Assembly (NCBI RefSeq): GCF_036588685.1
Contig: NC_086382.1
Location: 59,520,001-59,584,000, forward strand
DNA from: Mytilus trossulus
Lineage: Eukaryota
Length of the DNA stretch: 64,000 bases
Direction of reading: 5' to 3'
The notes under the pieces were generated by a model. It made no database searches and was not told the DNA's origin. It saw only the letters and a list, made by a program, of their open reading frames with translations. Made by a program: the position numbers and the translations under genes. Of the stretch, positions 32,465-64,000 are shown in pieces (positions within the stretch are counted from its first letter, which is position 1; each line of letters begins with the position of its first letter).

Positions 32465-32470
32465 TTTATT
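32465..32470 (-). terminator. Candidate TOPBP1 polyadenylation signal AATAAA
   Basis: First AATAAA ~120 nt after the stop codon; conserved in copy A at 8081-8086. Confidence 0.4.
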
Positions 32471-32590
32471 TCCATTATAAAATGCTTCTTCTTTGATAGC
32501 ACTTAGATAAAGAATTCAATAAAAATTTAATAGTACAGATCATTCATTAAATACAGGTTTTTAATTTACAGAGAACAATGAAACTAAATG

Positions 32591-38500: not shown

Positions 38501-41500
38501 AATATAAAATAGATGAGCTGCTATAAATTCTGGCTTCAGACAAAGTATATTGTTACCCAATAGAACCTGTATGTCAGACTGAAAATATAAAATAGATGAG
38601 CTGCTATAAATTCTGGCTTCAGACAAAGTATATTGTTACCCAAAAGAACCTGTATGTCAGACTAAAAAAACAAAATACAAATCATATGACTAACGTCTAT
38701 ACATCGATTTATAACCAAGATCAAGCATGATCATCAGTTCAGCACATAAATAACTTATATCAGATAATTATGGGTTCTTTGTTACTTTGAATGTCATGAC
38801 TTCATACATGAAGATCATAGTAATTTAGGTAATACTTGCCTAAAAGAAACACTATTTTAGTCACTGAAATCAGTGGATTCTAATGAAAATAAAATATATG
38901 GCCAGAAACGACAATGAATGACAAACTACACAAATATACTGTGGATTTTGTTTGATATTTCTTTTGTGCTTTCGCCAAAATGTGCTTACATCTACAGAAA
39001 ATGTATACTTTGTTCAACATTTAAATTTATAGTTTTACCATGTATTTAATAAAAATTTGGTACCCATTGAATAATGATGAATCCAAACTGCAATTCAAAA
39101 AATATAGCTTCAACTCCATGATATACTTACAGGTTGTAAAGGCTTTTTGCTGAGGTCAAGGAATGCATGTGAAGCAGATATATTTTCTTCATATGGGGGT
39201 CTACAAAAGTAACATAAAATTGTTTAATCGTTACAAATGAAACGCATACCATTTGTACGAATTCTGTGGATAAAAAATCCTATTACTTTAAATTCTAAAA
39301 AATTGTATTATTTGAAGAACACCATTGTTTAAAATAGAAAATGGGGAAAGACAAATACCAGTAGGAATATGGAAACTATTAAATCAACCATTCAAGGTTT
39401 TCCAGAGTCTTTATGGTGACTTGAATAAGACCGGTACCACTCAGATTACATTTCTACCTTGACAGGTAAGTTTGTATTTAACCTATAAAATACTTATTTA
39501 GCCTTGAGAATTGAAAGGTCAGTTTATCCCATTCATAGAAGTTTACCTATGAGGGTCAGAATGGGGTTTACAGAATAGAGAATACATGTAATAGCAACAA
39601 AAAAATAGAGAAAAGAGAAAATGAACAATAAAATAAAATATAGAGAATACTGCGGTACAAAAGTATAAATAATAAATGTGCAAAATAACTTGAAAAGGTA
39701 ACTTTAGTAACTGTAATGCAATACTGATAATATAATGATCAATGTACATAATTGATAAATAATCTTGTAAAAGAAACACTATATATATTTTGTATATAAA
39801 AACATTTTACAGAATGAGAGTTATTAGCTCACCAGGCCCAAAGGGCCAAGGGAGCTTTTCCCTTCACTTGGCGTCCGTCGTCGTCGTTAGCTTTTACAAA
39901 AATCTTCTCCTCTGAAACTACTGGGCCAAATTAAACCAAACTTGGCCACAATCATCATTGGGGTATCTAGTTTAAAAAATATGTGGCGTGACCCGGTCAA
40001 CCAACCAAGATGGCCGCCACGGCTAAAAATGGAACATAGGGGTAAAATGCAGTTTTTGGCTTATAACTCAAAAACCAAAGCATTTAGAGCAAATCTGACA
40101 AAGAGTATAATTGTTAATCAGGTCAAGATCTATCTGCCCTGAAATTTTCAGATGAATCGGACAACCCTTTGTTGGGTTGCTGCCCCTGAATTGGTAATTT
40201 TAAGGAAATTTTGCTGTTTTTGGTTATTATTTTGAACATTATTATAGATAGAGATAAACTGTAAACAGCAATAATGTTCAGCAAAGTAAGATTTACAAAT
40301 AAGTCAACATGACCGAAATCGTCAGTTGACCCTTTTAGGAGTTATTGCCCTTTATAGTCAATTTTTAACAATTTTTCGTAAATCTTAGTTATCTTTTACA
40401 AAAATCTTCTCCTCTGAAACTACTGGGACAAATTAATCCAAACTTGGCCACAATCATCTTTGGGGTATCTAGTTTTAAAAATGTGTGGCGTGACCCGTTC
40501 AACCAACCAAGATGGCCATGGGCTAAAAATAGAACATAGGGGTAAAATGCAGTTTTTGGCTTATAACTCAGAAACCAAAGCATTTAGAGCAAATCTGACA
40601 TGGGGTTAAATTGTTTAGCAGATCAATATCTATCTGCCCTACAATTTTCAGATGAATCTGACAACCCGTTGTTGGGTTGCTGCCCGTGAATAGGTAATTT
40701 TAAGGAAATTTTGCTGTTTTTGGTTATTATCTTGAATATTATAATAGATAAAGATAAACTGTAAACAGCAATAATGTTCAGCAAAGTAAGATTTACAATT
40801 AAGTCAACATGACCGAAATGGTAAATTGACCCCCTAAGGAGTTATTTTCCTTTATAGTCAATTTTTAACAATTTTCATAAAATTTGTAAATTTTTATTAA
40901 CATTTCCACTGATACTACTAGGCCAATTCATTATAGATAGAGATAATTGTACTTTAACAATATCACAATAACAATAAAGTGACCTTAATTTTGGACAAGG
41001 TAAATGGCATGAAGCCAAATTTATCAACTTCTATTGTATGAAAGGGAAACTGACCTTTCAATTCTCAAGGCTAAATAAGTATTTCATAGGCTAAATACAA
41101 ACTTACCTGTCAATGTAGAATTGTAATCTGAGTGATACCGGTCTTATTCAAGTCACCATAACACTATTTATTGATTCAGATTTGAAATACATTATCACAA
41201 TTATGATCAGATAAATCAAAATAGACTCTTTAGTTTGGATCTGTATTTTCTAATCATTGAAAAAGGTTTTTAACTTTTGTAATATGTTCTTATAATATAC
41301 ATGTGAGGCATGAGGAAACATATTCTTAATCACAAAACTTTGAAACACTTACTTATTTTGTAGTACAGTAGCACCTCCAGCCTCTAGCAATCTTTTAAAA
41401 TTGTCATCTTTAACCTTATCACAATTCAGTAGCACTGTCCAACCATCAAATGCACCTATACATTGGTTAGTTGACTGTAAAAAATAAAACAAAGCTCACT

Positions 41501-44498
41501 ATCATAATGCATATTAATTTATTTCTGTGGTAACTAATCTTGTAGATTGAGGAAAAATTGTATATCTTAGATTTAAAAAAAAACTTATCTCAACTCTGCT
41601 TCACAACAAATACACAGTGTATATTATAATAACATGTTGTCATTTATTTTTGTGGTTTCTAATCTTGTGGATTGAGGGACAATTGTATATATGGTGGTGT
41701 TGTTTTTTACCTTGGTAGATTGTTGAGATGAACAAAAGCTTTAACTCATCTCATATCTGCATCACAACACATACACAGTGCAAATTATGATAACATGTTG
41801 TCAAGTATAAACCAAACAGTATCAACAGAGTCAGTCTTCAGTGAAAGAATAATTAATTGCTGCTCTTCTAAGACTGCATATCTACCACAATATACACATA
41901 ACTATTTTGTAAAAGTTATTCACAAGTTATTAAGATAAAACCAAAATGTCACTATTTTATATTTCATACAATTTACATCTTTTCTGTGAAACATCTTCAA
42001 ACTTACTAAAATGTTCAAGTCATCACTCATCCCAATTAAAAAAAAACCAGAATGTAAAATAAATCTTACCAAGAACAATTTCATTATATTTTAAAGAATT
42101 CAATTGAATATAAAATACCACTCCCACCTGTAGCGTATTTTGGACTTTGATCCTCCACCTGTATGCAGCAGCTGCCAGTTTAGCTGTTTGTTGATTGAGC
42201 AAACTTTGTGTTCCATCACCTCCCCATTCATAAAAATCTTCCTACAAATAGTGTTATTACTGTACATATAGCACTTATAGAAACTGTTGTTATTATTTAA
42301 CTACAAAATATCGTTCATTTTACTCTCTCACATTTTACCAATCATCCAGTTAAACTTACATAAAGGATGAATAAAACAGTAATAAATAACTAATTACATG
42401 CAAAGATATAAAAAAAAAAAGGTTAATAAAAGTTATGTTTTTTATTTCAAGTCCTATATAAAGCATGACAATACAAAAGAAAACAACTTTACTTGAAAGT
42501 CACATATATAAACACAAGTTCAAGTTTGTACATCATACTTAATGTATAGAAATTGTAATAGACATAAAAATATTAGAAGGATTGTTTTTTTTTATTCTTT
42601 GAAGTAATTTAGGTGTACCAAACATTATTTTTCTTTATCAGTAGTTAAAGATATATTCTCCTTTGTAAGTCTTTTAGAGAAGCCATTATCTAAATTTCTA
42701 ATTATAACTATTTATGTAACATAAAATGACCTTATTGAGGCTGTTCATTAAACTGTCATTACCTGAACAAATTGTCTCTCCTGACGACAAGCTTCAAAGT
42801 ATGATTTGTGTAGAACCCATTTCCCTGATGCTACACTTGCTAAAAACTTCTCATTTCTTGTAGGTTTACCTGAAAGTCATTGAACTTGTGTAAAAATATG
42901 TACTGCCTCTAAAAAGTTATAAAATTAGTACATCAATGCTTTTTATTTTATAATTCACAACCTTCAGTAAATGCCAGATACAGACATTTGAAATTTACTG
43001 AGTCTATCCTAAACTGTTTGACATATTTCTTTTGTTTCTTGTTTGTTTACTTTCTGCTTACTTGTCTTTAAAACTACAACAATGATTATCTCCAGAATGT
43101 TTGATGTTTCAGATAGATTTAAGATCGTACAAAATCCTTGATGGTGATTTTTTTTTATTGTTAGCCTCAGTCATTTTGGAAGCAGGAGTTTCATGTGTCA
43201 ATTTTCTCAGCTTCTATCTTTTATAATAGATTTGTATAATGTTATTGGGACACACAGATAAGAGTAATCCTGTTTTATTACACTATCTACATGTAAACAC
43301 TGCACACAAACCTATGACTAGATGTGTACAGGAACAATCAAAGTGTAGAGATTCTAATATCTTCCCTCCAAGCTGTTCTACTAAAGCACCATAATTATCT
43401 TTTTCCTAGAATATAAATAATAAATGTAAGGTCTGTTATGGTTATATCAAGGTATGTAATGATATAAATAATAATTGATTCCTATATTTTTGTAGGCACC
43501 TATTTTCAGAGATTTTGAAAACTTGCTTGTTTGTCAATCTCTGCATACAATGTCTATAGAAAGTTTTTAATTCTTTGAGTGTTAGGAAAAGAAACATAGA
43601 CATTAATAGTTTTACTTCTTGTGGTCACATTACAAAAATGTTTGTGAACTTAATTTGTGATATGCCTCCATCAAGATAATTTCATGAAAATATATAAAAT
43701 CCACAAAACACAAAATATTGACAGGATTTATAAAGTAATGTCTTACAGCTGGTTCCATGCCAGACATAATGAACACAGGGGGTGGTTTCTGGACTGGTTC
43801 CTCTTCAGGTTCTGGAGAGGGAATTCTATTCTCTTCTTTTCTTGACTTGTGGAATGCTATAACAAACAACATTTTCAATGTCTCTAATTAGTCAACGCTA
43901 AATTTTATATGAAAGGTAAGAAATAACATTAAAACTAAGTATGTTAATAGTCAAATGTGAATTTTTACTGTGTTCTTCCTTTGGCTCAATATGCATTTGA
44001 TGATTTATGTATTCACTCATTATTTCAAGTTTAAAGTCTCTTCTGAATAGATTTTTAATAATCTTTCTTGTACACCAATAACACTTGCTTTGTCCAATAT
44101 TTGATTTCTAAGTTAAATTCTGTTTGTTCTTTTAATGCATGAAAAAGTGTGTTTCTTTTTAATGTTCTATGGTAATACTATTGCTTTTTTTTCTATATTA
44201 GATAAATTTTGATATTTTTTGTAACAATTTATTTATAAAGTTAACAGATATTCATTTCTTTTAACTTTTTATAATGGGTGTATGGGAAAGTGCCTTTATT
44301 AAGTCAGGAATATGACATTGTTATCTATTACTTTGATGGGTTGAGCTTTTGATTTTGCAATTTGCTTAGTGCTTTCTGTTTAAATTTTTCCATGATGTTT
44401 TATATTTTTAATATTGTACTTTTATATACATGTAAATATAAATACCTACCTAGAGATGGACCCTCCGGAGTTGGAACTCTTTCCTCTTTTGGTTTTTC
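32591..44498 (-). CDS. TOPBP1: TOPBP1 last nine exons (BRCT7/BRCT8 and basic NLS-like tail), functional copy B
   Basis: Open frame from [18 protein letters not shown] through [46 protein letters not shown] and ASHAF to [13 protein letters not shown]. Confidence 0.93.
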
Positions 44499-47400
44499 CT
44501 TTAATATTGTCAAATAAAAAAAGAAAATATAATCACACTGTACTCGTGTAATGCTAGCAATTTATCATATTATAACAAAATAAATGTTTCAGTTGTTACT
44601 CTGTACTGTTGAGATATGGATGATTTTTTTGTTTTTCTGTTTTCATGTTTTACTTTTTACATTTTATCTTTTAAATTGGATCTTACATCTTCCTTAATTA
44701 ATGCGTATAAATTCCCAAAAATCATCAGAATGACAAACAGGATGCATGTGTAATTATGCTAAGCATATCCGTCTAATTTTGTAAGTGTCTGTTATCGTAA
44801 AGTAACTACTATAAATTTGAAAAGCTGATACACTTTACAAAGCATCACTGTTGAGCTTCTGAACAAATATGAAGTCAATCTGTCGTGTAGATTTTGAGTA
44901 AAGTGGGTCAAAAATATTTGTTAAATAAACAGGTGGAGGTGATTGCAATTTAGCCAACTTTTAAAGTGGGAGTATAATATTTAATTCAGCCAAAATAAAG
45001 TTTAAAATTATTTGTACATTTTGTACATGAGACAAATTTTCCTTTTTGTTATCACATAGTTGTATGGTGTATGAGAAATTGTGTACTTCCTATCCTTGGG
45101 TCATGTATCAAAGTTATTGAAACATTTTGCTTGCTCCATATTTAAGGATAGCAACATACACAGCAACTCTGAATCACTCTGAAATGGAAAAATAAAATCC
45201 TATACTTACTTGAGGAACTTCAGCTTCAGGTTCGTGTAACCCTTCCTCATAATCTATGTCTTCTTCCTCCTCAGAGAACTCCCCGTCCAGGAACTCAGCT
45301 ACATCCTGGGTAGGGCTACACGCTCGTTCAAGTTTGTGAGCTAACTTTTCTTGTTCTAGTCTGTAAAGCATTTACCAGAGGCATTGATATAAACGGGAGG
45401 AAAGGGAGATTTTTTTACGTTATAATACATTAACTTGTAGTGGATTATTGTCTATTTCTTATTATGTATGTATAAAAAAAATGATTTTTTAAATTTGAAA
45501 TGCCTTCTTACTCCTTATTGCTATACCTTCAGAAAAGTCTAAATCTGTATTGCAGAAAAAAATATCATCAATTAAGATAATTCTAACTATATCTGAACAC
45601 TAAATTATCTTTGACAGATTTAAATATTATTAGAGAGTATATTCATCAAAATATATTCACTTCTGATTCGTAACAATAAAGTGTTGGTTTTTAAAAAAAA
45701 GTTTTATTATGCAAAACCTCAGAAACTAAGAAGTATGTAACTCCCCCACGAGAAGAACCAGTAAAGAAATACTATAAGAACAAAGTCTCCCATTTGTTGA
45801 TGGGGAATATAAAAAGTAAACATGGAAGCTTATTAGTTATAATTCTAAAAAATTTGTAAGGGTTCCGCGGAACCCAGTGTCTCGCCTACTTTTGCTGTAA
45901 ATCGCAGGTTCAACAAAAATGAGGCAAAAAATCAATAAAAATATTCCTCTTGATACTATCCTATGATTGTAAGAAGGTTCTGTCCAAGTTTGGTAAAAAT
46001 CTAGGACAGTTAATGAATCTAATAAATGTGTTGAAAACTTTAACTACAGACTGTATGTAATGTTAACTAGAAGAAAATCTAAGTCAATTTAAAAGTAAAA
46101 TACAGAAAAAATGGAGTTATACAAAATTTACTAACTTATGATCATAAATAAGCTTCTGTCCAAGTTTGGTACAAACCCAGGATAGTTTAAGAAAGTTATT
46201 CAAATTTTAAAAACTTTTACCACAGAGTGAATGTAATGTTTCCCTGCAGAAAAACTAAGTTCATTTAAAGGTAAAATACGGAATAAATGGATTTATTATT
46301 TTATAAATTTTGCCTCTGGATACTATCTTATGATCATAAACAAGTGTCTGTCCAAGTTTGGTACAAACCAAGGATAGTTTAAGAAAGTTATTCAAATTCT
46401 AAAAACTTTAACCACAGAGTGAATGTAATATTTCCCCACAGAAAAAAATAAGTCCATTTAAAAGTAAAATACGGAAAAAATGGAATTTTATTTTTACAAA
46501 GTTTACTTCTGGATACTATCTTATGATCATAAACAAGCTTCTGTTCAAGTTTGGTAGAAATCCAGTATAGTTTAAGAAAGTTATTAAAATTTCAAAAACT
46601 TTAACCACAGAGTGAATATTTGTGGACGCCGCCGCCGCCGACGGAATGTAGGATCGCTTAGTCTCGCTTTTTCGACTAAAGTCGAAGGCTCGACAAAAAG
46701 GTTTTAATCAGATGATATAAAATACATCTTACCTTCCAGTATGATCATCCCATGTGACCTGCACACTCTGTGAAGGCTCCGGTCCTGAGTGATTTTCTAA
46801 CGCTTTCCCTGTTAAATATATATACAAATTTTCATTACTGGATAATAATTTTAAGAAAGGATAATTTAAAATCCAACTGAAAATGTGATGCATTATAGTA
46901 GATTTTGCAAAAAACAAAACTTTAGTATTAAAAGACAGATGGGCAGAAAATATGTCTTCCTATGGAAATGAGGGAATTTAACTATAACAATAAAAATCTT
47001 ACAGCAGACTTAAAATCTTTTTCTTTTTTTATATATATATATAATTGATTCAAACCTGAGCTTGTTGGAGTCTTCTTTTCAACTTTATCGTCTACAATAA
47101 GATCAAATGATTTAAATTTTAAATCACATTTCAATATCAAACATCAGAATAAATTTTAACAGACTTTTCATTATGACACCTTTATATCAACTGAAATGTG
47201 TAACCTCATTGAACAAGTTGACATCATTTTGTAAAAATTCATAGATATGTCAAATGTTGATATTCATCTTTTTATTTCTGCATGTTTAATTTAAAGTGGT
47301 CTTGTAAGGAGCATGAATTGCTAATCAATACATTCAGGTAAGCTAGTTTCATCCAAATCAAGATGTCAAGGAATATTATGATAATAATATGAAAATTAAT

Positions 47401-50400
47401 ACAATGTACATAAAAAATAATTTGCAGCAGTCTAATTGATTGTCCCCAAGGCTTTGTGATATATTTGCACATTTTGTAGTCTTATTTTCATCATTTTCAC
47501 CTAATGTCACAATACATGTTAAAATTCAGAGAATAAAGATAATTATGACCTCTGTTAACATTCAAGCCTGTAGTTACTTTAACTTACCAGTTAAACTCCA
47601 TCTGTTTTGTCTAGAACTATTTTTATCAGCACTACCTGACAGATCACCGGACAAATTACCACTACCTGTCGAAATAAACAAACTCATCGAAATCAATTAT
47701 CTTCATTTACATATTAACATTTATCTGTCTTCAATCATTTTCCATTTCTTTGATTTTCAATATATGAGTTAGGCTGTTTATAGTATAGAAACATATTACA
47801 TAAGCAGAAACATAAGGTGCCTTGGAAGTCTGCATGTTTTCTAAATAAAATATTGTAAAATCTGATATTTCTGTATGCATAATTTGTTGCAAAATTGTTC
47901 AGTAACAGAAAAAAATGTGAGATTGTTATTACAATTTTAGGAAATGCTACATGCAAATATTTCTATAAAATCTGAAATGTGAGTTTTTATATATGACAAT
48001 TAGTATCATGTCAAAATTTTTGAAAATAATTAAAACCAAATATAGTATACAAGTAAAAAATTCATCATTTCCTGATGTTAAAAGATAACACAGTAATACT
48101 AAAAACTTACAATTTAATCTTTTACTCCTTCTCCTCATTGCTTTTTTAGTTCTGGAAGTAATAAACAACAATAAAAGGAAGAACTAAAGATAACAAAAAA
48201 TTCAATCGAATAAAAAGCATAATAACAGGAATTTCATTTGAGAACTATGAAAGTTCTATCAAGTTTTAACTTTTTCCTTTCATTACATGTGCACATATTA
48301 TTTAGATGCATTCTAAAGACTGTTGGGCACAGAGACACCCTTGTCTTGTGCTACTTAAAAGTGTCACCATAATAAAATGGAATATCAAAAAGGTATCTTA
48401 TCAGAAGCAAGTTAAATGCTAGTATTTTTAAAACATATTGGGTATAACTATAGTTCCTTTTGACTCGAAATATTTTAATTTCCACCTATTTACAAACAAA
48501 ATGATGAAATCTGGTCCTTTTAACTTATCACAAAAAAAAGATTTGATTCTCAAATCCAGTGTCCTAATACAGTAAATTTTTAATGTTCTGTACTATTTGG
48601 CCTGTAAATTTTGTTTTCCCAACATATTTTAGTATGACAAATAACATAGCCCTGCTGTGTCAGATATGTCAGATAATCTTCTTTTTGTTGGTAAGATACT
48701 GTAACAATGATTTCTGATGAACATAAGTTATTTTCCTATGTAATCAGGATTATAACACAAAACCAACTGGACCAGGAATTAAATTAGTTTTTTATTATTT
48801 TCAATTCTTACTTTGATGCTGCCATAATACTTTCCATCTCCTTTGATAGAACTTCCCTCATTTCCATGGACCCTGCTGCTGGCACAGCATCCTAATATCA
48901 ACATAAAAATAGTGAAAATTTAAGTTAAAAGTAGGTAATGAACATGATAAAAGAGGGTGACTGTCAATTTTATTCAACTTAAATTAAAACTATTCATACA
49001 TGTTTTTTTTTTTTCTTTTTATATCAAGATCTACAAATGAAGGCAATGATTTGAAAGAAAAAAGACCAAAAGGTCAAAATACTGAGACTACTATTATATG
49101 AAAATTGTTTGCTAGTTCTTTCTAATAATTTTCATCAAAATTTTTAATAAAAGTTATACTTGAGTAAAATGAACACATTGAACTTTTCTAGTAAAATATT
49201 TGCCTGGTTTACAAATGTGTAACTAACCTCTTTCCCTCGATCTTCATCAATGGAATTTATACTACTTTTCCTATTCCTTCTTCCACCCTTTGTTATTTCT
49301 TCCGGAACCTCCACTACATTCCCTAGCCTTGACCTTATTTCAGTATCAGTGTCTGTTTGTCCTTGACCTAACCTTGACCTTATTTCATTATCTGTGTCAC
49401 TTTCACTAACTGTTTCCTTGTCCGATTCCATTACTTTTTGTACTGGCTTTTTTAATGTTTTTTCTACTTCCTGGTCAAAGGTCAATATTTCTGGTTTCAG
49501 GTCACTTGCTGATTCTAACCGTGTTGCCCTGGTTGCTTTTCTGCTACTTCTAGCAGGTGTTCTTGCTGGGGTTCCAGTCTTTTTTCTTGACACAGACTAA
49601 AATAGAAATCTTTTAGTTATTGAAGGCTTTTAACATACCTTTAAATTAACAAAACATATTATTTATACTACTTATAAAAAAAAGCTTTTTCGTTTCCTGC
49701 TTCTTTATCAAAACTTTTTGCAGTAATTATACATCTAAAAAGACAAAATTATAATTAAATATGATGAAATATCAGTGATTATTTCATTCTTGCACATCTC
49801 TAGACACATAATGCTTTATTTGAATAACAATTTTAATATTTTTAGATGGCCTACACAAACTTGAAAAAAAATAATAACAGTTTTTAAACAACTATCAGAT
49901 TTCTCTATTTTTTTCAGAATAATTTTCAAATTTCAACTGACAGTAACTTCCTACGTTTCATCTAATATCATTTTATTTAAGATGATAGTCAAATAATAAA
50001 CTTACCAGTGTAAGATTTGGATTGTAGTTATGTGGAAACAATGACTCATCTACCCAGGCGTTCTGTTCTTTACACTGAAAATAAAAACGTAATAAGAATA
50101 TACTTACAATATGATCTTCTATGAACATCTAGATAGATATAATATCAATTATTTAAACTTCGAGCAGTAAAATTTACAGTTTTCTTTTAGATATTACAAG
50201 TTTGAATTATAAACTTGTATGTTATTTTCTTTACCGAGGATGCAGTAGAAATTCTCACAGTTGAGATGTATGCTTTATAATACATGTATTTTCCAAATCA
50301 TGAAGTATTTAATGATTTTTTTAACCGTATATTCCTTCATTATACTTAATTCAAAATTTTTGGTTTAAATTACATCCATCATTTTTCCTTACTATAATTT

Positions 50401-53400
50401 CAGTTTTCTTTGTAATAGTGCAAAAATTCTGCAGATGTTGAGATTACGTTTTTTTGGGGTTGTTCTAATTTAAAAAAAAAAGTCTATTCGTTCATTAACA
50501 TAAGTATCAGCTATCTATGAATAGCATCAATTTCTTATAAAATCAAGACTATAGGGATTTCTGTTCTTGCTAAATTGTGTGAACTCATTTGTTCATCATA
50601 CCAACTTTCAAGTAAACGGCAAGATGAAGAACAGCCATGTAAGTACTGTCCCTTTCATATTCTTGTTATTCTTAGGGATTTTCTTATATGCAAACACCTT
50701 ATATCCATTTTTACACAACAGTTTCTTCAATAAAATATTTTCAATGCAGATATATACTATTTTTTTAGGCTCAGATACCTTAAAATATAAAGTATGTAGA
50801 CTCACAGAACTTTATTAATACACTTACCATTAACAGCCAATGAGATGAAACAATAATTTTCTTTTGGTCCCTTGCAACTCTGAACTCTTTAGTGGTATCA
50901 TTTGCTCTAGTGCTCTGAAAGCAAATATAAAAATACATTATTTTTGATGCTGAGCCCTTACATGGCATTAAAGACAGAGAATTTTCAATTTACTCTTCTA
51001 TATTAAGGGATTTCTTTATGTGATGTCTAACTTTGCCAATGAATCACAAAAGTATATCCAACTTTTAATAAACTACTTCAGCAATGTTGGCTTCCGGTTG
51101 TTTTTGGGAAGTCTTCTTTGTGTTATCACCACATTTATACATTTTTAACCTTTAAAGCTTAAGACTACTAGTTTACCTTTTCACAGTCAATATAAGGGCT
51201 AGATGATAGTTACCCTCCAAAGATATCTATTATCTCTTTGGAAATCTGCACTTTGGCAACAGCCATCATAATAGCAAACCTTTAATCAATTAAGCATTTT
51301 CTATTTCTAGTGTTGCTCTCAATATCTTAGTAATTTATATTTCATTCAGGATATACTCAGGTGAGGTTTTGGAAATTTGTGTCAGAACTTTTCGGACTGC
51401 TTGGTTTTTACCAACAATACAGGGAAAAACATTTTGCCCCATAACACCCACATTTCTTTTCATAAAAGACTTCAAAAGCTCATAAAAGGTCATTTTCTAA
51501 AATTTAAGCAGACTCTTGATTTCTTTTCTTTCAATCTGAGACCAAAATAAATGCTTTGCAAATGTAGGGTAAAAGTCTGAGTCAACCTTAAGACAAAATA
51601 TCTAAACCACTGACAGTCTTCCTTACCTGGAATATAAAATGTGTACATGATTCATCATAGGCCCATCTATAATCTCCTCCCAGTAATGATACCATATTGT
51701 TGTACTCTGCCTGGTGGGAACTCAGCTTCTTACTCACTGCTATCACTACTCCCTTCAATGGTCCGGCCTCTTGTTGCTGTAGAAAAAACAAGAATGTGTC
51801 CACAGTACACGGATGCCCCACTTGCACTATCCTTTTCTATGTTTAGTGGACCGTGAAATTGGAATAAATTCTCTAATTTGGCATTAAAATTAGAATGATC
51901 TTATCAAAGGGAACATGTAAACTAAGTTTCAAGTTGATTGGACTTCAACTTCATCAAAAACTACCTTGACCAAAAACTTTAACCTGAAGTGTAACAGACG
52001 GATTGAATGAATGGGTGAAAGGACTCACAGACCAGAAAACATAATGCCCCTCTACTATCATAGGTGGGGTAAAAAGATAAGAATATGAATTGAAGTTTTT
52101 AAATACGAGATCTCAATTCAGTCAACTTTGACATTAAATCTGATCAATTGAATACATATATCCTTCTTTTAAAAAAAACTAATTGTATACATTAAAAATT
52201 TGTAAGGGTTCCGCGGAACCCAGTGTCTCGCCTACTTTTGCTGTAAATTGTGGGCTCAACAACAATGAGGAAAAAAATCAATAAAAATTCTCTTGATACC
52301 ATCTTATGATTGTAAGAAGCTTATGTCTAAGTTTGGTAAAAATCTAGGAAAGTTAATAAATCTAATGAATGTTTTGAAAACTTTAACTGCAAACTGTATG
52401 TAATGTTAACTTAAAGAAAATCTAAGTCCATTTAAAAATAAAATACAGAAAAAATGGAGTTATCTTTTTACAAAATTTACTTCTGGATACTATTTTATGA
52501 TCATAAATAAGCTTCTGTCCAAGTTTGGTACACACCCAGGATAGTTTAAGAAAGTTATTAAAATTTTTAAAACTTTAACCACAGATTGAATGTAATGTTT
52601 CCCCGCAGAAAAACTAAGTCTATTTAAAAGTAAAATACAGAAAAAATGGAGTTATCTTTTTACAAAATTTACTTCTGGATACTATTTTATGATCATAAAT
52701 AAGCTTCTGTCCAAATTTGGTACACACCCAGGATAGTTTAAGAAAGTTATTAAAATTTTTAAAACTTTAACCACAGATTGAATGTAATGTTTCCCTGCAG
52801 AAAAACTAAGTCCATTTAAAAGTAAAATACGGAAAAAACAGATTTATATTTTTACAAAATTTACTTCTGGATACTATCTTATGATCATAAACAAGCTTCT
52901 GTCCAAGTTTGGTACAAACCCAGGATAGTTAAAGAAAGTTATAAAAATTCTAAAAACTTTAACCTTAGAGTGAATGTTATGTTTCCCCGCAGAAAAAACT
53001 AAGTCTATTTATAAGTAAAATACGGAAAAAATGGAATTTTATTTTTACAAAATTTACTTCTGGATACTATCTTATGATCATGAACAAGCTTCTATCCAAG
53101 TTTGGAAGAAATCCAGTATAGTTTAAGAAAGTTATTAAAATTTCAAAAACTTTAACCACAGAGTGAATATTTGTTGACGCCGCCGCCGACGGAATGTAGG
53201 ATCGCTTAGTCTCGCTTTTTCGACTAAAGTCGAAGGCTCGACAAAAACCATAACAAATAAATGAATGCTGTCCAAATGAGCTTGATTTAAACTGATAAAT
53301 TAATTATTAACAATTCTGTCAGTTTCATTAAATTACACTGCTTATAATCAAATACTGCCTCAATAAATACACTTTTAACACAATGTTATGAATATTAGGT

Positions 53401-56400
53401 ATTCTTGAGTTGTAAAAGCAACCCACAAAACACTATACAACCAAATGAAACATAGATTTCCAAATGTGGTGTGCAATGATAGATATGTATCCATATATCA
53501 TATGTTGATGTATATATATATAAGTTTCAATTATGTTGCTACTTCCCTTTGATAATGTATACAGGACATTTCATCTCTTCAAATGTGCAATATTGTCTTT
53601 TATAAAGTTAAAAATTTTCAGTACTTAAATGTGTTTATAACAATTGAGTACTCTACCACTGTTCAGATTAACATTAACAGAAACAGAACTGACTAACTTA
53701 GTAAAAATATATATAAACTTACAGAGAGTCCATCCATACCAGAGCCATCTACTTCATCTGAACCCCTTGTAGCAGTTGTAGCTCCCTCAGATATTTCTAC
53801 TGCTCTCTGTAACTTGATGGTGAAAAGTTCCTCTAAGGGCTGAAAATTGTTTATATGGTTAAGAAAAAAGCAATTTATGTTTGAGCATCATCTGCTCATT
53901 TAAAAAAATAACATAATAAGTAGTAATTGAAGCTACAGATTTTTTTTATTAAAATGTCAAAAAAATTAGGAGAACATAAAATATCATACTGATTTATCTC
54001 AGACGTTGAAACACACTATATCATTGATTGTGCAAATTAGTTTTGTTAATTTATTGTAAATTGATTATTTTCAGTTTGCATCATTCTACATTACCTGGCT
54101 TTGTCTTCTTTTGGCATTTCTGGCTTTTTCTGCTGGTGGAGTCTCTAAACACTTCCAAACATCCTGAAATAATTCCATTAATTACTTTTTTCTATAATGT
54201 TTAACTAAATTATAGAATAACTATTGCATAAAATCAGTGGTGAAAAATCATGATTTTATGTTAACAAATGTTTATATTTGAGAGGGCAATCACAGAATTT
54301 CATTGCAAAATATGTGATAATGATTTGTGGCACAGACTCTAAGTTTAAATTCCAAAGAATATTTATTAACTCCTCTATCCTATATCTCTAAAAACTCATC
54401 AAAGGGGAGACATAAGATAACAATGATATAAAGATTTGCCTAAATTATCAAGTAATCTCCCTAATGTTTAAGCTATAAATACATTTACATCTAATTTGGC
54501 ATAGTCATAGTTTAATATTTACTGTATGTAGTAGCTTTCATAGAAGCTGTATCAGGGACACATCTTGTTTCCTTAATAAATAATAACCAAGTTTAATCAA
54601 AAAAGTTTGTACATAGTTATGCAATGAACTTTTCTATCTAAATATACCTCCCAGTTTATGAAGGATTAAATTTTTTTGTTATAATATTTTGTTTTTGAAT
54701 GATACATTCAAACAAACATAAGCAGTTTCTGAAAACAAAAGAACAAGAAAATATATTTCATGTCTCAGGGCTATATGGGGAATGATGAAAAATATAACCA
54801 TTTACCGTGAGATCCCATTTTGGTCTGAATTCTTTTGTGGGATCCAGGAATCTCCCAGGTGAAGGAGAACTGATGCTGGCTCTTTTAGAAGAATTCTTTG
54901 GTGTGGTCTCAAAATCATCATTTTGTAAGGCCTGAAATATAAAGTAAACACCCTTTTTATGTATCAATGTCACATAGAATATAATTACTATATATAACAT
55001 CCACCAATGACACTATTTTATCTATCAGATCAAAAGGATCTAGATGAGCAAAATGGAATACTATATGCATTTGGCAAACTTGAAATAAATAAATACACAT
55101 TTCACAACTATATTAAAGATTACATATATATCAGAAAATAATACCTTAATATGCGAGCAGATTAAATTTAGTATCAAATGGTTATGCTCACTTAGGTGAA
55201 GCTCTGTATAAAATCACAAGACAAATAGTTAGTGTAACTAGGCCCAAACATCCAGCTGTAAATCTTATTCAATCATACAATGCATACCTTTACTCTCTGA
55301 TTTACAACTTTTGGTTGAACAGGAATAGGTTCTTTTTTCTGATGTACATTTTCTTTCTGACTTTCTTGAAAAGGTTTAGGATTATTTGTTGAGGTTGTAT
55401 CTAAATTTTCTTCATCTCTAATATTCTCTTTACTCTTGTCAGCAGGTAATGCACCGTCTATTGTCATCTCAGAATTAAAACCTTCCATGGCCTCCATTGT
55501 TTCCATGCCAACAGAAAGATTACCACTTCCACGTTTAGAAATGTCTTTTTGGTTAGAATTTGTCATAGAATCACGCTTTGAGTTATTTGCTTGGACCCCT
55601 TGTTCATAATTGTCAATTTTTATGGCTTTGTTATCTCCCTTCATTGAGATATCTTGTTTAAGAGATTCATTTCTATCATTCAAAACTGCAGTTGTAGCAG
55701 TTTTACTCAGTTCTGATTCATTCTCCTCCATAACATTTTGTTGGTTATCAATAAGATACTTTTCTAAAGGCTCTGGTTTTCCAGATTTGGCACATGCTAA
55801 AATCCACCTAAAATATTCAATTGAAGATAAGAACAAGCTTCTAGACTAACAAAAGGTTGATTATTAAATAATTGAAATATATCTCAAATGTAAATGAATT
55901 AGTTAAAATTTTAATGTTTCTTACAGCTAATATAATCCTTCTGTCAAATGTTCAAAATGACAAAAGTCACTAGCTGTAAATAAATATCAAAGGTACCAGG
56001 ATTATAATTTAGTAAACCAGACTCCCGTGTCGTCTACATAAGACTCATCAGTGACGCTCAAATCAAAATATTTATAAAGTCAAACAAATACATCACATTT
56101 TGATAAAAGTACATCTAAATGATCGCTTAAAAATATTATTTTAAAATCTCTTACAAAACCCTTCTTTTCAATATGTATTACTGTATTAGTTTCATGTTGT
56201 TTTACAAGTTGAACATACGTTTTAGATAATGCTGGTATCCCCCAGTTTTTAGCAGCAGTGTACTTTTGACCAGAAGCCTCCTTGGTTATCAAATGAGTTG
56301 TAGGCAAAAGCCCTTTTTTGGCATTTCTCACAAAATATTCCTGTGTTCTGTAAGAAAAATAATACTACACTTAACAGATCAAATAAAAAAAATAAAAATA

Positions 56401-59400
56401 TAAACACATATATATTTTATATAAATTGATGATGACTGATATGGGATGATTAACATACTCTTGGAAATATGATATGCATATAAGGACAAGAAAATGTTTA
56501 TGTGATGTTAATTTGAACCTTCTTTTGAAAAAGACTGTTTTTTAAAAGAAAAATTTAATTTATTTAAAACGAACTTAAGTGTTATCTAGATATTTTGTAT
56601 TCACACAGAAAGGTCTTGTCTGCTTTAAAGATTATAATAGAATTTTGTGTTGGTAAAATTTTGTTATTTGTAAAGTACATCTTAAAACCACACAATTGCA
56701 TTTGATAGAGCTGCTTGAATAGGAAAATATATATCTTAATCTCCAATACCCAACTTTGGTAGCAGTTGAGATGAAAGTTGTTATTTGTATCCAATAAATA
56801 TAAACATTGATGTCTGCCTATCCTAGTTAGTAAAGAATAATCTTTTGACAGATGGGTTGTTAGTTTAAGGTGGTACCAAACAGCATGATTAAAATGCACC
56901 ATGAACTTGAACCATACTTTATCTGGAAAAACGTTTTTGAATATCAAGAAGTTTGACAAACACTAATTTTAATCAACGAGAAGCTTTGAGAAGTCATTAA
57001 CAATAAAACATGATTACATAATTTAGCTGGTTTTAACAGAGTTATCTCCCTGTAGTGAAATGTATCATCTTAAACCAAAAATCTTTTTCCTCTATAATAA
57101 TGAACTTACTGAGCACCTATACACTGGGCAATATGCATCAGACATTCTTTTTCTGTTCCAAACCAACCACTGTAACAAAATATAAATATCTATTTGTTGC
57201 AGAAGTATATATTTCTGAATTTGTATGTCAAAATATATATGATTGTCATACATATTTTTTTCACCGCAGTAAAATCGCATTTAAGTCTAAAATATCAAAA
57301 TCGCAATATCAAATGTACGCAATAATTTCTGAATTTACAGTATTTACACCTTTGGAAAGTTTTGTTGATACTTATCTAAATTCTGTATCCTTGTTGACAA
57401 TAGACAGGAATATAGATATGTGATACTAGTCATAGTACACACAAACTGATGACACAAAGTTGACAATGTACAGTGTGTGTAATAGAATAATACTCAACTA
57501 CTTACTTTTAATTGATTTATAAAATACCTATGATTTTTATCTTACAGCATCATAAAAAGTGTTTTTTAGAATTCAGTTAGAAGCTTTAAGTTATTTTTCA
57601 TACTTCTTGTTAAATAATAATTGTCTTTATATGTCCTGTATGAACTAATGATCAATCAGTTTCATTAACACGTTCCAATCCCTACTGACTCACCTGAATG
57701 ATAAAATACAGTCCACCAGTGGATTGTCTTCAATATTGATATCCACGGGAGAAAATAGTGGATTACTACTCACTGGTAAAAGTGTGTCAGATTCTGCACA
57801 CATTTGCTGTAATCAATAAATATATTTCAAATATATGTTTTCAGTTCAAAGCTTTAGAAATATATATTTTTTTAAATCAAAATTTCTCTGTTTAGAATCT
57901 CTTAACTGCAGATCTGTTTACCAAATTTGAAAATACAAAAACCATAAATAATAGCCAAATAGCATTAATTTCAATGACACAGAAATATTTTAATAAACAA
58001 GCCATTTTTTTATGGTTTAAAACTAAAATTGGTTTGATAGATTCTCATTAATTTGACTTTTTAAACAGAGACTATAATCAGATTCAGATAATCTTCAATT
58101 TCAGTTTAAAGCTTGCTCAGCTTAATTGAGTATCAAGAATTTTCTTTCTTCTTTGTATTTTTTAAAATTAATATTTATTTCTAAATGTGATCTTATTTCA
58201 AAATTCAGTTTTTAATATCACAAGCATAATAACCTTTCTCAGTCATGTTTGTTATCTCCCCTTAATTTGAAAAGAATGGAGGAAAAAAAACTTTTCTAAA
58301 ACTAATATGTATAAATATTTCCAGCAATAATAGCTTCTACTGTATATTCACAGAATCTTTTAATAAGAAGTTTGTTCATTTAAAAACCCTTTACACACTT
58401 TCTTTAGTAATGGAAAATATTAATATCTTTGGCATCTGAACAGTACTCAGAAATTTCACTTCTTTTGTCCTTCAACAACTGTTTTATGACTGGATTAAAT
58501 CCTGTAATTTTTCAAAAAGTATGTTATAACATTGAATACAAACCAGCCAAGTACTGGTTGCTATTTCTCCAACTGTTTTGTCCACAGGAAATCCATCTAC
58601 AGGAACAACACCATAATCTGGTACCAGTCTAGTGTTACCCTGATAAACTTTTCCTGAAAATTTAAAGATCATTGTAGCAGCAATTTTAAATTGTTAAATA
58701 GTAACCACAAGAAATTATCTTTATCATTAACAAAATGTACAATTTCGGTAAAACAACAAAAAATCAGGACCAAAACAAAAATAAAGGAAAATTTTTACCA
58801 CTCATACATTTGCTGCAGAAATAAGAAAGTGTTTAAGAATTCTAAATTAAAACAAACCTCCTTCCTCATTTACAAATTCTGTTAATGGTGTATGCTGCTC
58901 TTCCTCAAATCCAAAAAACATAAATGATTTTCCTGTAAACACCTTTTTCTGTATCTGACTGTCACCTAAAATTACGTATCAAAAAATATTATTTCTTGGG
59001 TAAATTATATTTAGCTATAAATATTAGAATTTTATACAAAATTTTGGTAAATCATTGAAAAAATATATTTCTTTTGAACTTTCATACACTTATATGCCAT
59101 TTTTTGAAAAACTCTGAAAGTTTGGAGACCTATATCAATCTGTGTTTTACATGTTTTCATGCATGCTCAGTCGATGTGAAAACTGTTTCAACACTTGCCC
59201 AACTGCACAGGCATCTTCTAGTTAATATAAAACTGTGCATACATAATTTAGAAAAAAGATTATCAGAACAATCATTTTGTTAAGATATAAATTTTGCAGC
59301 CTTTTGTGTAATAAGGAGTCAACTAGGATACAATTTACTGCAAAAAATTCTACTTCACAATGACTGACTTTTAAAAGTAATATAACACAACTAACAAATT

Positions 59401-62400
59401 ATACAAACTTACCATCAGGATTTTGAGTCATTTCATCTGCCTCTGTTTCTACAGGTCTTTGTTCTATAGCTGTAGGTTTATCTTCATCTTTCATGGTTTT
59501 ATCCTGTGTATTATCTAAAATGTATGATTTAAAAATTAATCAGTATTTAACATTTTAAAAATCATCACAAAAGCATGATATACAATGGGAAGCAATGCTT
59601 ACAGCCTTTATTCTAATCTAACCTGAAAATTCTTGAGTATTCATAAATATCATACTGATTCGACATCTGCTAAATTCAAATAAATAAGGGTCAAAATTAT
59701 CAACATCAGTTTATTTATTATGATGTCAGTGATATGTCTGGGTCAAAGTTATAAAGGCTGGGTCAAACTATTTGACGTCACAAAGGCATGATATGTAATT
59801 TTGTCAAGCGCTGAGTAGATTGATACAGACAATAGGACAACATATAATTATTTATACCGTAACATCTTTTGGCTGTACAATAGGACAACATATAATTATT
59901 TATACCGTACCATCTTTTGGCTGTACAATAGGACAGCATATAATTATTTATACCTTACCATCTTTTGGCTGTACAATAGGACAACATATAATTATTTATA
60001 CCGTACCATCTTTTGGCTGTACAATAGGACAACATATAATTATTTATACCGTACCATCTTTTGGCTGTACAATAGGACAACATATAATTATTTATACCGT
60101 ACCATCTTTTGGCTGTACAATAGGACAACATATAATTATTTATACCGTACCATCTTTTGGCTGTACAATAGGACAACATATAATTATTTATACCGTACCT
60201 TCTTTTGGCGGTACAATAGGACAACATATAATTATTTATACCGTACCATCTTTTGGCGGTACAATAGGACAACATATAATTATTTATACCGTACCATCTT
60301 TTGGCTGTACAATAGGACAACATATAATTATTTATACTGTACCTTCTTTTGGCGGTACAATAGGACAACATATAATTATTTATACCGTACCATCTTTTGG
60401 CGGTACAATAGGACAACATATAATTATTTATACCGTACCATCTTTTGGCTGTACAATAGGACAACATATAATTATTTATACCGTACCATCTTTTGGCTGT
60501 ACAATAGGACAACATATAATTATCTACACCGTACCATCTTTTGGCTGTACAATAGGACAACATATAATTATCTACACCGTACCTTCTTTTGGCGGTACAA
60601 TAGGACAACATATAATTATTTATACCGTACCATCTTTTGGCGGTACAATAGGACAACATATAATTATTTATACCGTACCATCTTTTGGCTGTACAATAGG
60701 ACAACATATAATTATTTATACCGTAACATCTTTTGGCTGTACAATAGGACAACATATAATTATTTATACCGTACCATCTTTTGGCTGTACAATAGGACAA
60801 CATATAATTATTTATTCCGTACCTTCTTTTGGCGGTACAATAGGACAACATATAATTATTTATACCGTACCTTCTTTTGGCGGTACAATAGGACAACATA
60901 TAATTATTTATACCGTACCATCTTTTGGCTGTACAATAGGACAACATATAATTATTTATACCGTACCATCTTTTGGCTGTACAATAGGATAACATATAAT
61001 TATTTATACCGTACCTTCTTTTGGCGGTACAATAGGACAACATATAATTATTTATACCTTACCATCTTTTGGCTGTACAATAGGACAACATATAATTATT
61101 TATACCATACCATCTTTTGGCTGTACAATAGGACAACATATAATTATTTATACCGTACCTTCTTTTGGCGGTACAATAGGACAACATATAATTATTTATA
61201 CCTTACCATCTTTTGGCTGTACAATAGGACAACATATAATTATTTATACCGTACCATCTTTTGGCTGTACAATAGGACAACATATAATTATTTATACCGT
61301 ACCATCTTTTGGCTGTACAATAGGATAACATATAATTATTTATACCGTACCTTCTTTTGGCGGTACAATAGGACAACATATAATTATTTATACCTTACCA
61401 TCTTTTGGCTGTACAATAGGACAACATATAATTATTTATACCTTACCATCTTTTGGCTGTACAATAGGACAACATATAATTATTTATACCTTACCATCTT
61501 TTGGCTGTACAATAGGACAACATATAATTATTTATACCTTACCATCTTTTGGCTGTACAATAGGACAACATATAATTATTTATACCGTACCTTCTTTTGG
61601 CGGTACAATAGGACAACATATAATTATTTATACCTTACCATCTTTTGGCTGTACAATAGGACAACATATAATTATTTATACCGTACCATCTTTTGGCGGT
61701 ACAATAGGATAACATATAATTATTTATACCGTACCATCTTTTGGCTGTACAATAGGACAACATATAATTATTTATACCGTACCATCTTTTGGCTGTACAA
61801 TAGGACAACATATAATTATTTATACCGTACCTTCTTTTGGCTGTACAATAGGACAACATATAATTATTTATACCGTAACATCTTTTGGCTGTACAATAGG
61901 ACAACATATAATTATTTATTCCGTACCTTCTTTTGGCGGTACAATAGGACAACATATAATTATTTATACCGTACCTTCTTTTGGCGGTACAATAGGACAA
62001 CATATAATTATTTATACCGTACCTTCTTTTGGCGGTACAATAGGACAACATATAATTATTTATACCTTACCATCTTTTGGCTGTACAATAGGACAACATA
62101 TAATTATTTATACCGTACCATCTTTTGGCTGTACAATAGGACAACATATAATTATTTATACCGTACCATCTTTTGGCGGTACAATAGGACAACATATAAT
62201 TATTTATACCTTACCATCTTTTGGCTGTACAATAGGACAGCATATAATTATCTACACTGTACCATCTTTTGGCTGTACAATAGGACAACATATAATTATC
62301 TACACTGTACCATCTTTTGGCTGTACAATAGGACAACATATAATTATCTACACTGTACCATCTTTTGGCTGTACAATAGGACAGCATATAATTATCTACA

Positions 62401-63969
62401 CTGTACCTTCTTTTGGTTGTATAAGATACTGTGACATGATATCCATTTCTTCTTCTTCCTTGTGATCATCCTCATCAGGTTTTATGTTTTCTGGTTCTAA
62501 AGTTTTGTTTTGGATACTCTCTTTTCTTTCAAGTTTCTTCTGTTTGCTGTTTAAAAAAATGTAATAAAAATGATAAAAAATACTTATGCATAATAGCAGA
62601 CTCAAAAACTTAATCTTTTCATAGGAGGTAAAAAAGCTTATTGTGTTTAATATTACATATCTACAAACAAATACCATCACCAGTTTCAGTGTTAACAAAA
62701 TTTTTGCAACTCTGTAAAAAAAATATCTTACGACTAAAATTGATAGTTATACTGAAATGTGAATGACTTAATAGTATTTTTACTTTAAGTTTTTTGGGGA
62801 AAAAGAGCCCCTGATTCTAATATTAACTGTGTAAGTTCAACAGCATCATCTTAGAAGATGTGGCACTGCTTTATGCATGATTTAGTCAAATATGTATAGT
62901 CTCAATCTAAGATGTAAAACTTCTAGATTTCATTTAAAAAGTTTATGACTTCTACTATATATATATATAAAGGTTCACATCACATGCAAAGGCTGTTTGT
63001 GATGAAACCTTCTGCCAAAAAGTAGACAGATACCTGAGCATTCTGTAGAAAAGTTTACGTTATTAAAGTTAATAATCTTCATATATTTGGAAACTAAGAA
63101 CACAATTTTGATGACTAAGAAGTAACTTTAATCCTTACACTGTTAACTTTGGAGATTCTGATTCAGGTTGAGGTATATCTAGACATGAGAATGGTGCTTC
63201 ATCCACTGTTCTACCATTACGGTAACATTCTGCTAGCCAGGCTGGGGAAACAACCTGTGGTCTATAAATATACCAAGTAAATTATATCAATAATTTTAAA
63301 CTTGAACTCAGTTTCGCAAATATTTTTTATTGAAATTGAGTGATCTATGTCTGATATTTTTTCTTTCTAGTAATAAATCATTCCTAAGCCTCATTTTTGA
63401 AGTTGAAAGTAACTGTAAATGCAAGAATCAGTGTTGAACCTGATGAATCCTAAATAATGTTATTAGACACTCACTTTTACTCATGAAAATTTGTGTTAAT
63501 GTTACAAATAAATATAAGATGATAGATATTTTTTTGATATAGCGGAGTATATTTTTTGTGCAAATAGTTTGTATAACAAGGCAGTCTTAGAATTGATATA
63601 ACTTCTTGTTTTAGTTTTACCTATACAAAGAATTCTTCAAATATCGATGAGCAATGGAGAAAAGAACATTACTACCACTTTATATTAACTTTGTTGCATA
63701 ATTGTCGTATTGGCAATCATACCACATCTCCTTATTTTCATACCAGTATTTCATTACAGATAAAAAATTGAACTGGTTAACTGGACAATGTCTTATCGAA
63801 CAAACTAAAATCAGAAGTGTATTGTCCTAGAAACAAACAAATACAGATTTTATATTCATGTATTTTTTTAGACATTTACCTGACAGTGTTTGAAGTTAGT
63901 AATTCGATATCTCTGTCAATTCTTACTCCCAGTATGACGTGAGTGACAGCTTCATTTAACTGGTTAAGT
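32591..63969 (-). CDS. TOPBP1: DNA topoisomerase II-binding protein 1, multi-exon; 5' part lies beyond the window
   Basis: 32 GT-AG exons join in frame: 63880-63969, 63139-63261, 62407-62546, 59413-59514, 58858-58965, 58544-58653, 57694-57806, 57110-57169, 56219-56347, 55288-55807, 54806-54931, 54095-54163, 53723-53839, 51627-51776, 50828-50914, 50006-50074, 49228-49596, 48812-48891, 48111-48151, 47588-47665, 47056-47091, 46733-46808, 45210-45360, 44450-44498, 43747-43856, 43312-43405, 42763-42869, 42128-42241, 41353-41474, 39131-39200, 36619-36752, 32591-32684 (TAG). Recognisable TOPBP1 peptides: [86 protein letters not shown]. Confidence 0.96.
33283..34553. mobile_element. Tc1/mariner-pogo-type non-autonomous element
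   Basis: TA|CAGTCGATTCCACTTAATTGCATA...TATGCAAATAACTGGAATGTACTG|TA. The empty site GGTAA-TA-GTTGG is at 8835-8846 in copy A. Confidence 0.88.
35119..36568. mobile_element. Helentron/HINE-like element with ~6 internal ~165 bp tandem units
   Basis: Repeated GACCTTTGACCTAGGAAGTTGTACATACATCATGACAC core, a GGAC microsatellite and a terminal GC hairpin. Absent at the equivalent site in copy A (~9638). Confidence 0.7.
36686..38663 (-). repeat. 83 bp minisatellite, 24 copies; unit = 16 nt splice acceptor + first 67 nt of a TOPBP1 exon
   Basis: GTCAGACT recurs every 83 bp (36751 to 38660 = 23 x 83). The minus-strand unit is TATTTTATATTTTCAG|TCTGACATACAGG...GCAGCTCATC. Confidence 0.97.
39405..41165. 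mobile_element. Long-TIR element (~120 bp TIRs) carrying a nested repeat
   Basis: 39411-39530 is the reverse complement of 41044-41161. Absent from copy A. Confidence 0.75.
39822..40950. mobile_element. Nested Helentron/Helitron-like element with two ~500 bp tandem units
   Basis: Begins TTAGCTCACC..GGCCCAAAGGGCC (hairpin), then a CGT microsatellite. Units start at 39891 and 40393. Confidence 0.65.
45210..46808 (-). CDS. TOPBP1: TOPBP1 ATR-activating domain exons
   Basis: 46733-46808 gives [16 protein letters not shown], and 45210-45360 continues LEQEKLA. The SQ site and the critical Trp of the AAD (human EPSQNEQIIWDD) are kept. Confidence 0.92.
45850..46698. mobile_element. Helentron/HINE-like element, 4 internal ~190 bp units
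   Basis: Starts TTTGTAAGGGTTCCGCGGAACCC (palindrome) and ends with (GCC)n and a TTCGACTAAAGTCGAA hairpin. Sister copy at 52195-53246. Confidence 0.75.
50006..51776 (-). CDS. TOPBP1: TOPBP1 exons encoding BRCT6
   Basis: [33 protein letters not shown] / [18 protein letters not shown] / [19 protein letters not shown]. Confidence 0.93.
51787..52075. mobile_element. Short HINE-like repeat (other copies ~9350-9630 and ~34850-35110)
   Basis: AACAAGAATGTGTCC...GTTTCAAGTTGATTGGACTTCAAC...ATAATGCCC..TGGGG terminal hairpin. Confidence 0.65.
52195..53246. mobile_element. Helentron/HINE-like element, 5 internal ~192 bp units
   Basis: Same termini as 45850-46698. Core repeats at ~52306, 52497, 52689, 52881 and 53074. 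Confidence 0.75.
55288..58965 (-). CDS. TOPBP1: TOPBP1 exons encoding BRCT4/BRCT5
   Basis: Six exons give [101 protein letters not shown] and [10 protein letters not shown]. Confidence 0.92.
56011..56060 (-). ncRNA. Degenerate minimal type I hammerhead ribozyme motif in a Penelope/retrozyme-like repeat
   Basis: Minus strand reads GCGTCA-CTGATGA-GTCTTATGTAGAC-GACAC-GGGA-GTC-TGG. Related copies are at 14974-15020 (+), 19971-20017 (-) and 28863-28916 (-). Confidence 0.6.
59829..62421 (-). repeat. 48 bp minisatellite, 54 copies; unit = last ~15 nt of a TOPBP1 exon + splice donor + intron start
   Basis: AATAGGA recurs every 48 bp (59831 to 62375 = 53 x 48). The minus-strand unit CAGCCAAAAGATG|GTACGGTATAAATAATTATATGTTGTCCTATTGTA matches the true junction CAACCAAAAGAAG|GTACAG at 62407/62406. 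Confidence 0.97.
63139..63969 (-). CDS. TOPBP1: TOPBP1 exons encoding the C-terminal half of BRCT3
   Basis: 63880-63969 gives [29 protein letters not shown]. 63139-63261 gives [17 protein letters not shown]. Both match the vertebrate FNQLNEDVTHVIVG...RPHVVGAKWLLEC pattern. Confidence 0.9.
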
Positions 63970-64000
63970 CTGAAAACAACATGTAATAGAAACAGATATA

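Follow-up and report, generated by a model that had tools for sequence, protein, structure and literature searches.

Tandem repeats that span an exon-intron boundary have already been described in human and lancelet genes, and these systems are summarised here from the accessible portions of the papers cited. In intron 7 of human F7 a 37-bp variable number tandem repeat (VNTR) of 5-9 copies has its first unit over the boundary (Borensztajn et al. 2006, PMC1557585). Only the most upstream F7 donor was used when the number of monomers was varied from 1 to 12, and likewise when downstream copies were strengthened to a consensus value of 91; only perfect sites competed with the upstream donor (PMC1557585). 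In LAMIN B2 and PDGF no copy is used, according to the part of that paper available to us. The amphioxus 'mirages' of Adh3 and of the globins BflGb6 and BflGb9 leave regular splicing undisturbed, and their edge units escape homogenisation (PMC3087553). Here, we describe a member of this kind in the DNA-repair gene TOPBP1 of the mussel Mytilus trossulus, contained in a stretch of 64,000 nucleotides (the window; assembly GCF_036588685.1, contig NC_086382.1, positions 59,520,001 to 59,584,000), in which 54 units of 48 bp repeat the donor side of one coding exon down the following intron. The array consists of boundary copies; the first, authentic donor is likely taken nearly always, and the array would then leave with the intron.

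The host gene was identified by alignment to the M. trossulus RefSeq protein P0001, whose residues 407-1685 were placed by tblastn on the minus strand from 63971 to 32594. All 31 of 31 exon junctions fit this protein with GT-AG ends, the one from 62407 to 59514 among them. P0001 carries TopBP1_BRCT0 and BRCT domains, and one window exon, identical to P0001, matches solved TOPBP1 BRCT structures (PDB 3jve, E 1e-13), which together with the agreement of the window exons establishes orthology and domain architecture. Eight of 13 aligned Mytilus proteins cover the region, and all are collinear over the junction with no repeat-derived insertion.

Tandem Repeats Finder (TRF) called the array at 59829-62421 with a period of 48, 54.0 copies, 96% matches, no indels and a score of 4689, and cutting the minus strand from 62420 to 59829 yielded 54 units of 48 nt in 17 distinct types. 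Unit 1 joins the final 14 nt of exon 62546-62407 to 34 nt of intron, and the real boundary lies inside this terminal unit, which bears out the original prediction, made from the DNA letters, that a 48-bp copy of the junction at 62407 is present 54 times. The donor AAG/GTACAG (the slash marks the splice site) is found in two units (1 and 44), ATG/GTACAG in three (units 2-4), ATG/GTACGG in 23, AAG/GTACGG in 12, ATG/GTAAGG in 10 and the dead ATG/TTACGG in three (units 12, 36 and 54). All six of these variants had been named beforehand; a seventh, ATG/GTATGG, occurs in one unit and was absent from that list. The GT is kept in 50 of the 53 extra copies, and the splice signal is thus reiterated down the intron. 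Past the authentic donor, translation gives QPKEGTV-stop, as foreseen, with a stop in that frame in all 54 units, and the equally anticipated AG-10nt-GT arrangement is present at 33 of the 53 unit junctions (AG itself at 36).

The units beside the exon were also expected to be most like the true junction, and this held. Relative to unit 1, units 2-4 have 3, 3 and 2 differing sites, whereas units 5-54 average 6.34, and a permutation test sets units 1-4 apart from the bulk units (p 8e-5), as expected if edges escape homogenisation. Beyond units 2-4 the similarity to unit 1 shows no gradient (Spearman -0.09, p 0.52). The likeness of units 2-4 is chiefly on the intron side; at position -2 they have T where the true donor has A. 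The map of unit variants contains no repeated block of more than four units. Variable sites may cluster near the donor, the signal depending on the interval, with 6 of 11 at positions -3 to +8 (p 0.01) and 4 of 11 at -3 to +6 (p 0.11), the changes being linked and a CpG lying at +4/+5. The array intron measures 2892 nt, or 348 nt after subtraction of 53 units, and the median intron of the gene 593 nt. The array likely arose from a single 48-nt tandem duplication over the junction, in an intron of about 348 nt, which slippage or unequal exchange would have expanded, and the edge units would have been left out of homogenisation.

A Lys codon near the exon end (62411-62413, minus strand) is common to all 54 units, and the seven other covering Mytilus proteins have Met (six) or Arg (one) at this site. 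Either the array grew from a Lys allele or the array converted the exon end. The motif TAG-ATAAT of units 1-4, akin to the acceptor at 59514, was taken as chance (acceptor score -5.0 in unit 1), and long open frames through the array on both strands were dismissed as by-products of the 48-nt unit.

Four sequencing runs were mapped to 58400-59910, an interval that takes in the acceptor side plus the final 82 nt of the array; all run data are contigs, which lose rare variants and forms and whose depth is no measure of copy number. The unit-to-unit junction was recovered in two DNA runs, confirming that the array is present in reads-derived contigs. In run X1 it forms a loose end, and contigs over 59862 have a total depth of 750 compared to about 33 on the flank. 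In run X3, which has a different organism label and stems from a different study, a 78-nt contig crosses the unit junction with one difference; its length, 48+30, is what a collapsed 48-nt loop would be expected to give. The ratio of unit to flank depth differs much between the two runs, the unit depth in X3 being only 16.5, a few times its flanks. It is very unlikely that the array is an assembly artefact or far shorter in reality than assembled, because its tandem junction occurs in both runs and since the 17 unit types follow one another without a repeating order, unlike what a collapsed or inflated consensus would give. It must be noted in favour of such an artefact that the X3 depth is only a few times that at its flanks and that no contig spans the array, the 54-copy length being taken from the assembly. 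There is only a hint of length instability. A 22-nt exon pattern gave no matches in metagenome_contigs, so that no allele with a single 48-bp unit came to light. Both X3 contigs at 59513 carry a Glu allele known from other Mytilus proteins, so the array occurs beyond the haplotype of the window. In the exon 59413-59514, runs X1 and X7 show two alleles each, one window-like (Asp, Arg) and one with Glu and/or Lys; Glu and Lys changes occur in other Mytilus proteins, and the two alleles reflect either polymorphism or hybrid ancestry. The interspersed repeat directly behind the array (59717-59802) has a very high copy number, with bin depths up to 8800 in X1 and 2100 in X3.

Use of the authentic donor is directly visible in run X7. 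This run, one of two RNA-type runs, was taken to be RNA by guess, and it behaves as spliced RNA since it skips the next intron of 447 nt (58964-59410). Its contig 23 (476 nt, depth 17) has no differences over 59469-59516 and then continues with 30 letters that equal 62409-62438 exactly. The junction into 59514, singled out for checking in the original prediction, is in this contig the authentic one, with the 62407 donor joined to 59514, and P0001 likewise needs this junction. None of the X7 joints listed comes from a repeat-unit donor, these being contigs from which rare forms are dropped. The other RNA-type run, X6, had coverage in three of 30 bins and reached none of the exons close to the array, leaving X7 as the sole informative one.

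These observations are consistent with a mechanism in which the authentic donor would be met first by the spliceosome and paired with the acceptor 140 nt upstream, a predominance that we infer from the single contig displayed, and in which the most upstream donor may have priority as in human F7. The copies would accordingly be silent. Use of a later donor would take in the stop at 62396-62398 and should lead either to decay of the message or to a protein cut short at about 527 residues, and rare mis-spliced products would presumably be cleared by nonsense-mediated decay. The array is likely a tolerated repeat and near-neutral passenger DNA, and a regulatory role is unlikely. The proposal of about 50 decoy U1 sites stands as far as density is concerned, since donor-like sites of at least 4.5 bits number 46 in the array (17.9 per kb) against 4.7 per kb in 29 array-free introns. 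The effect on splicing or polyadenylation that had been attached to it is unsupported by anything seen, although rare decoy use would escape contigs: the X7 contig and the RefSeq protein have the authentic donor, and the copies in F7 stay silent even if strengthened (PMC1557585).

Donor strength was scored with a matrix of the gene's other 30 donors, which is small, penalises C at +4 (present in none of the 30) and was applied leave-one-out to these 30, and by U1 duplex energy. Several observations weigh against near-exclusive use of the authentic donor. On the gene matrix it scores 1.44 bits, the weakest of 31 (the other 30: 3.9-12.0), and is outscored by 46 of the 53 copies; by U1 duplex energy 11 of the 53 are stronger and nine equal. 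The exon is covered in one of the two RNA-type runs and the donor is visible in a single contig, rare variants would have been dropped from such contigs, and the donor of the second X7 allele lies outside the displayed joints. Within the accessible parts of the papers concerned, 6-16 and CBS intron 13 also use the nearest two copies to some degree (PMC1557585), as ABCA7 does with the donor one unit downstream (PMC5954066). Furthermore, the F7 rule derives from mammalian cells and the host here is a mollusc.

Based on such observations one may picture a sizeable share of transcripts being spliced from units 2-5 or later, taking in the stop at 62396-62398 and being degraded, in which case array length or the order of the variants would tune the dose of TOPBP1. 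The weak authentic donor and the many higher-scoring copies fit this picture, as does the fact that 48 is a multiple of 3 and yet a stop sits in unit 1. In ABCA7, use of the donor one unit downstream leads to a premature stop (PMC5954066, accessible portion), and P0014, a M. galloprovincialis protein model discussed below, uses an upstream copy of a second, acceptor-side array in the same gene. We nevertheless regard sizeable leakage as unlikely, since the sole displayed junction into 59514 is authentic and both scores place the three nearest copies below the authentic donor (0.04 bits and -6.1 kcal/mol for units 2-4, the authentic energy of -7.6 kcal/mol being mid-range). Unit 5 is the first stronger copy, again on both scores, and its use would yield an exon of 332 nt compared to a gene median of 109 nt. 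The weakness of the copies beside the exon could be due to selection against strong near copies, and could equally be an edge effect as in amphioxus, where boundary units escape homogenisation; with one haplotype these two are inseparable here. That selection shapes the whole variant map, with three weaker copies inside exon-length range acting as a buffer that keeps a weak authentic donor usable, with array length and order tuning TOPBP1 dose jointly with the acceptor array through a stop-coupled leak, and with a Lys codon that may be gene-converted, is quite improbable. If true, strong copies would survive only further out, and array length and variant order would set the dose between mussel alleles.

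Functions other than alternative donor use fare worse. Action of the array through U1 binding or premature cleavage and polyadenylation might be suggested by the 46 TATAAA and two AATAAA on its sense strand, with TGTA at unit junctions, and by the density of TATAAA (17.7 per kb; other introns, 1.9 per kb). TATAAA is a weak polyadenylation variant, and the canonical AATAAA is rarer in the array (0.77 per kb) than elsewhere in introns (1.39 per kb). Each TATAAA is located 5 nt behind a donor-like site, where decoys would protect rather than cut. Since U1 binding suppresses intronic cleavage, as stated in the accessible part of PMC10404622, decoy U1 sites are not expected to promote it, and such a role is highly improbable. 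It is even harder to credit that the AG-10nt-GT segments serve as microexons or recursive splice points. They are frequent, and their AG context of 3.9-4.9 bits falls inside the range of the gene's acceptors (0.6-13.1); 10 nt would, on the other hand, break the frame, adjacent segments are 38 nt apart when the shortest intron of the gene is 204 nt, and a junction insert is absent from the spliced contig and from the eight covering proteins.

Masking of decoys by RNA structure was considered as well and rejected, as the mean unpaired probability is 0.34 at the authentic donor, 0.15-0.43 at live copies and about 0.38 in the strongest class. A donor-covering hairpin can form in each unit (z -2.3 to +0.2 in six units), with modest stability. 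It involves 62373-62406 on the minus strand and the corresponding part of each later unit, and pairs donor positions +1 to +8 with the unit end. The common changes at +5 and +8 preserve its pairs, and authentic donor and copy are not told apart by it.

A second boundary array is found in the same gene, on the acceptor side of the exon that encodes BRCT8. TRF placed its 24 copies of 83 bp at 36684-38677. The last copy alone (acceptor at 36752) is continuous with the remainder of the exon, and P0001 requires that copy. Its acceptor scores 9.3, the same as 19 of the 24 copies, and it is therefore likely that position and the downstream donor, and not strength, mark the true acceptor. A partial duplicate of TOPBP1 holds the 83-bp unit once, with the exon start at 9823, and the intron upstream of that unit is similar to the sequence flanking the first array copy, so it likely represents the state of the acceptor array before expansion. 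This duplicate is part of a diverged direct duplication (79-96% in blocks) between approximately 3100-14060 and 29400-44530, comprising the 3' part of TOPBP1 together with DNA further downstream; with its 7-nt frameshift near 13310 it is likely a partial pseudogene. The M. galloprovincialis models P0011 and P0014 are identical over 943 residues, after which P0011 ends normally and P0014 differs by one substitution within the copied exon start and terminates in the read-through peptide of the acceptor array. Because of this ending the 83-bp array likely exists in M. galloprovincialis too, as judged from the protein sequence. The occurrence of two junction arrays within one gene is suggestive: both of the two local arrays lie at junctions (p 0.013, chosen after the fact), and over all five arrays of the gene the count of two is not significant (p 0.29).

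The 48-bp array can now be compared with its relatives, again on the strength of the accessible portions of the papers. As in F7, the array opens with a monomer lying across the exon-intron boundary, further copies of the donor follow along the intron, and mRNA shows use of the most upstream site. It differs from F7 in having 54 copies instead of 5-9, in its molluscan instead of mammalian host, and in that copies vary at the donor and many score above the authentic one, those of F7 being identical; F7 is furthermore known from minigenes and TOPBP1 from sequence. With the amphioxus mirages it shares the nature of an invertebrate, minisatellite-like boundary duplication of 5' and 3' types, of which TOPBP1 has one each, but phylum and gene are different and the copies outnumber those of the globin examples (3-6). 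The 25-bp VNTR of ABCA7 intron 18 likewise begins at a donor, and its next-unit donor leads to a premature stop (De Roeck et al. 2018, PMC5954066); unlike the TOPBP1 unit, that of ABCA7 begins at the GT and is without exon sequence. Length-linked skipping of exon 19 was measured in ABCA7 (PMC5954066) and has no counterpart among the mussel observations. No report of such a repeat in Mytilus was found in a search that left most subscription journals outside, which does not imply unpublished status, and the part of PMC10078293 available to us holds nothing on boundary-spanning repeats.

Table 1. Positions, in window coordinates, of the TOPBP1 features discussed.
Feature	Position	Strand	Basis
TOPBP1, 32 coding exons in the window (residues 407-1685 of P0001)	32594..63971	-	tblastn, junction fit
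TOPBP1 coding exon, 140 nt, approximately residues 478-524 of P0001; authentic donor AAG/GTACAG after 62407	62407..62546	-	P0001, spliced contig
Following TOPBP1 exon, 102 nt; acceptor TTTTAG/ATA at 59514	59413..59514	-	P0001, spliced contig
Minisatellite of 54 units of 48 bp, each made of the terminal 14 nt of the exon and the initial 34 nt of the intron	59829..62420	-	TRF, unit cutting
TAG in frame, reached by any transcript passing the authentic donor	62396..62398	-	QPKEGTV-stop
Units 2-4, ATG/GTACAG donors, below the authentic donor on both scores	62229..62372	-	donor scoring
Unit 5, ATG/GTAAGG, first copy above the authentic donor, 192 nt downstream; use would give a 332-nt exon	62181..62228	-	donor scoring
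Remaining intron outside the array, with high-copy interspersed repeat fragment at about 59717-59802	59515..59828	-	junction fit, run contigs
Second boundary array of 24 units of 83 bp, each made of the terminal 14 nt of the intron and the initial 69 nt of the BRCT8 exon	36684..38675	-	TRF, tblastn
Partial duplicate covering the nine final TOPBP1 coding exons (DNA identity about 84-94%; one exon with a 7-nt frameshift)	8210..14031	-	tblastn, DNA comparison

Other features of the window were recorded alongside. The interval separating the two TOPBP1 copies holds, on the other strand (23183-28471, plus), a single open frame of 1762 amino acids with DEAH helicase, RRM, KH (DEAH11-like) and IBR domains. 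A frame of 574 amino acids at 4755-6479 (minus), which encodes a reverse transcriptase end and a zf-RVT domain, is likely a truncated element of the long interspersed nuclear element (LINE) type. Short arrays with units of 150-193 bp are located in TOPBP1 introns at 35852-36497, 46129-46617 and 52291-53168; the latter two are 88% alike, and these arrays therefore look like a dispersed satellite family and not like local duplications. Degenerate tandem repeats of 19-21 bp with strong G skew occupy the window start (17-1709).

The TOPBP1 locus presents a known oddity in clean form in a mollusc: an essential checkpoint gene copes with 50 additional donors in one of its introns and with 23 additional acceptors in a second. 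It also holds a caution for annotators, since a public M. galloprovincialis model terminates inside the acceptor array. With copies of unequal strength, and with mussel alleles and hybrids at hand, the locus offers a handy natural test of position versus strength in 5' splice-site choice outside mammals. Its importance would be greater if array length should tune TOPBP1 levels.

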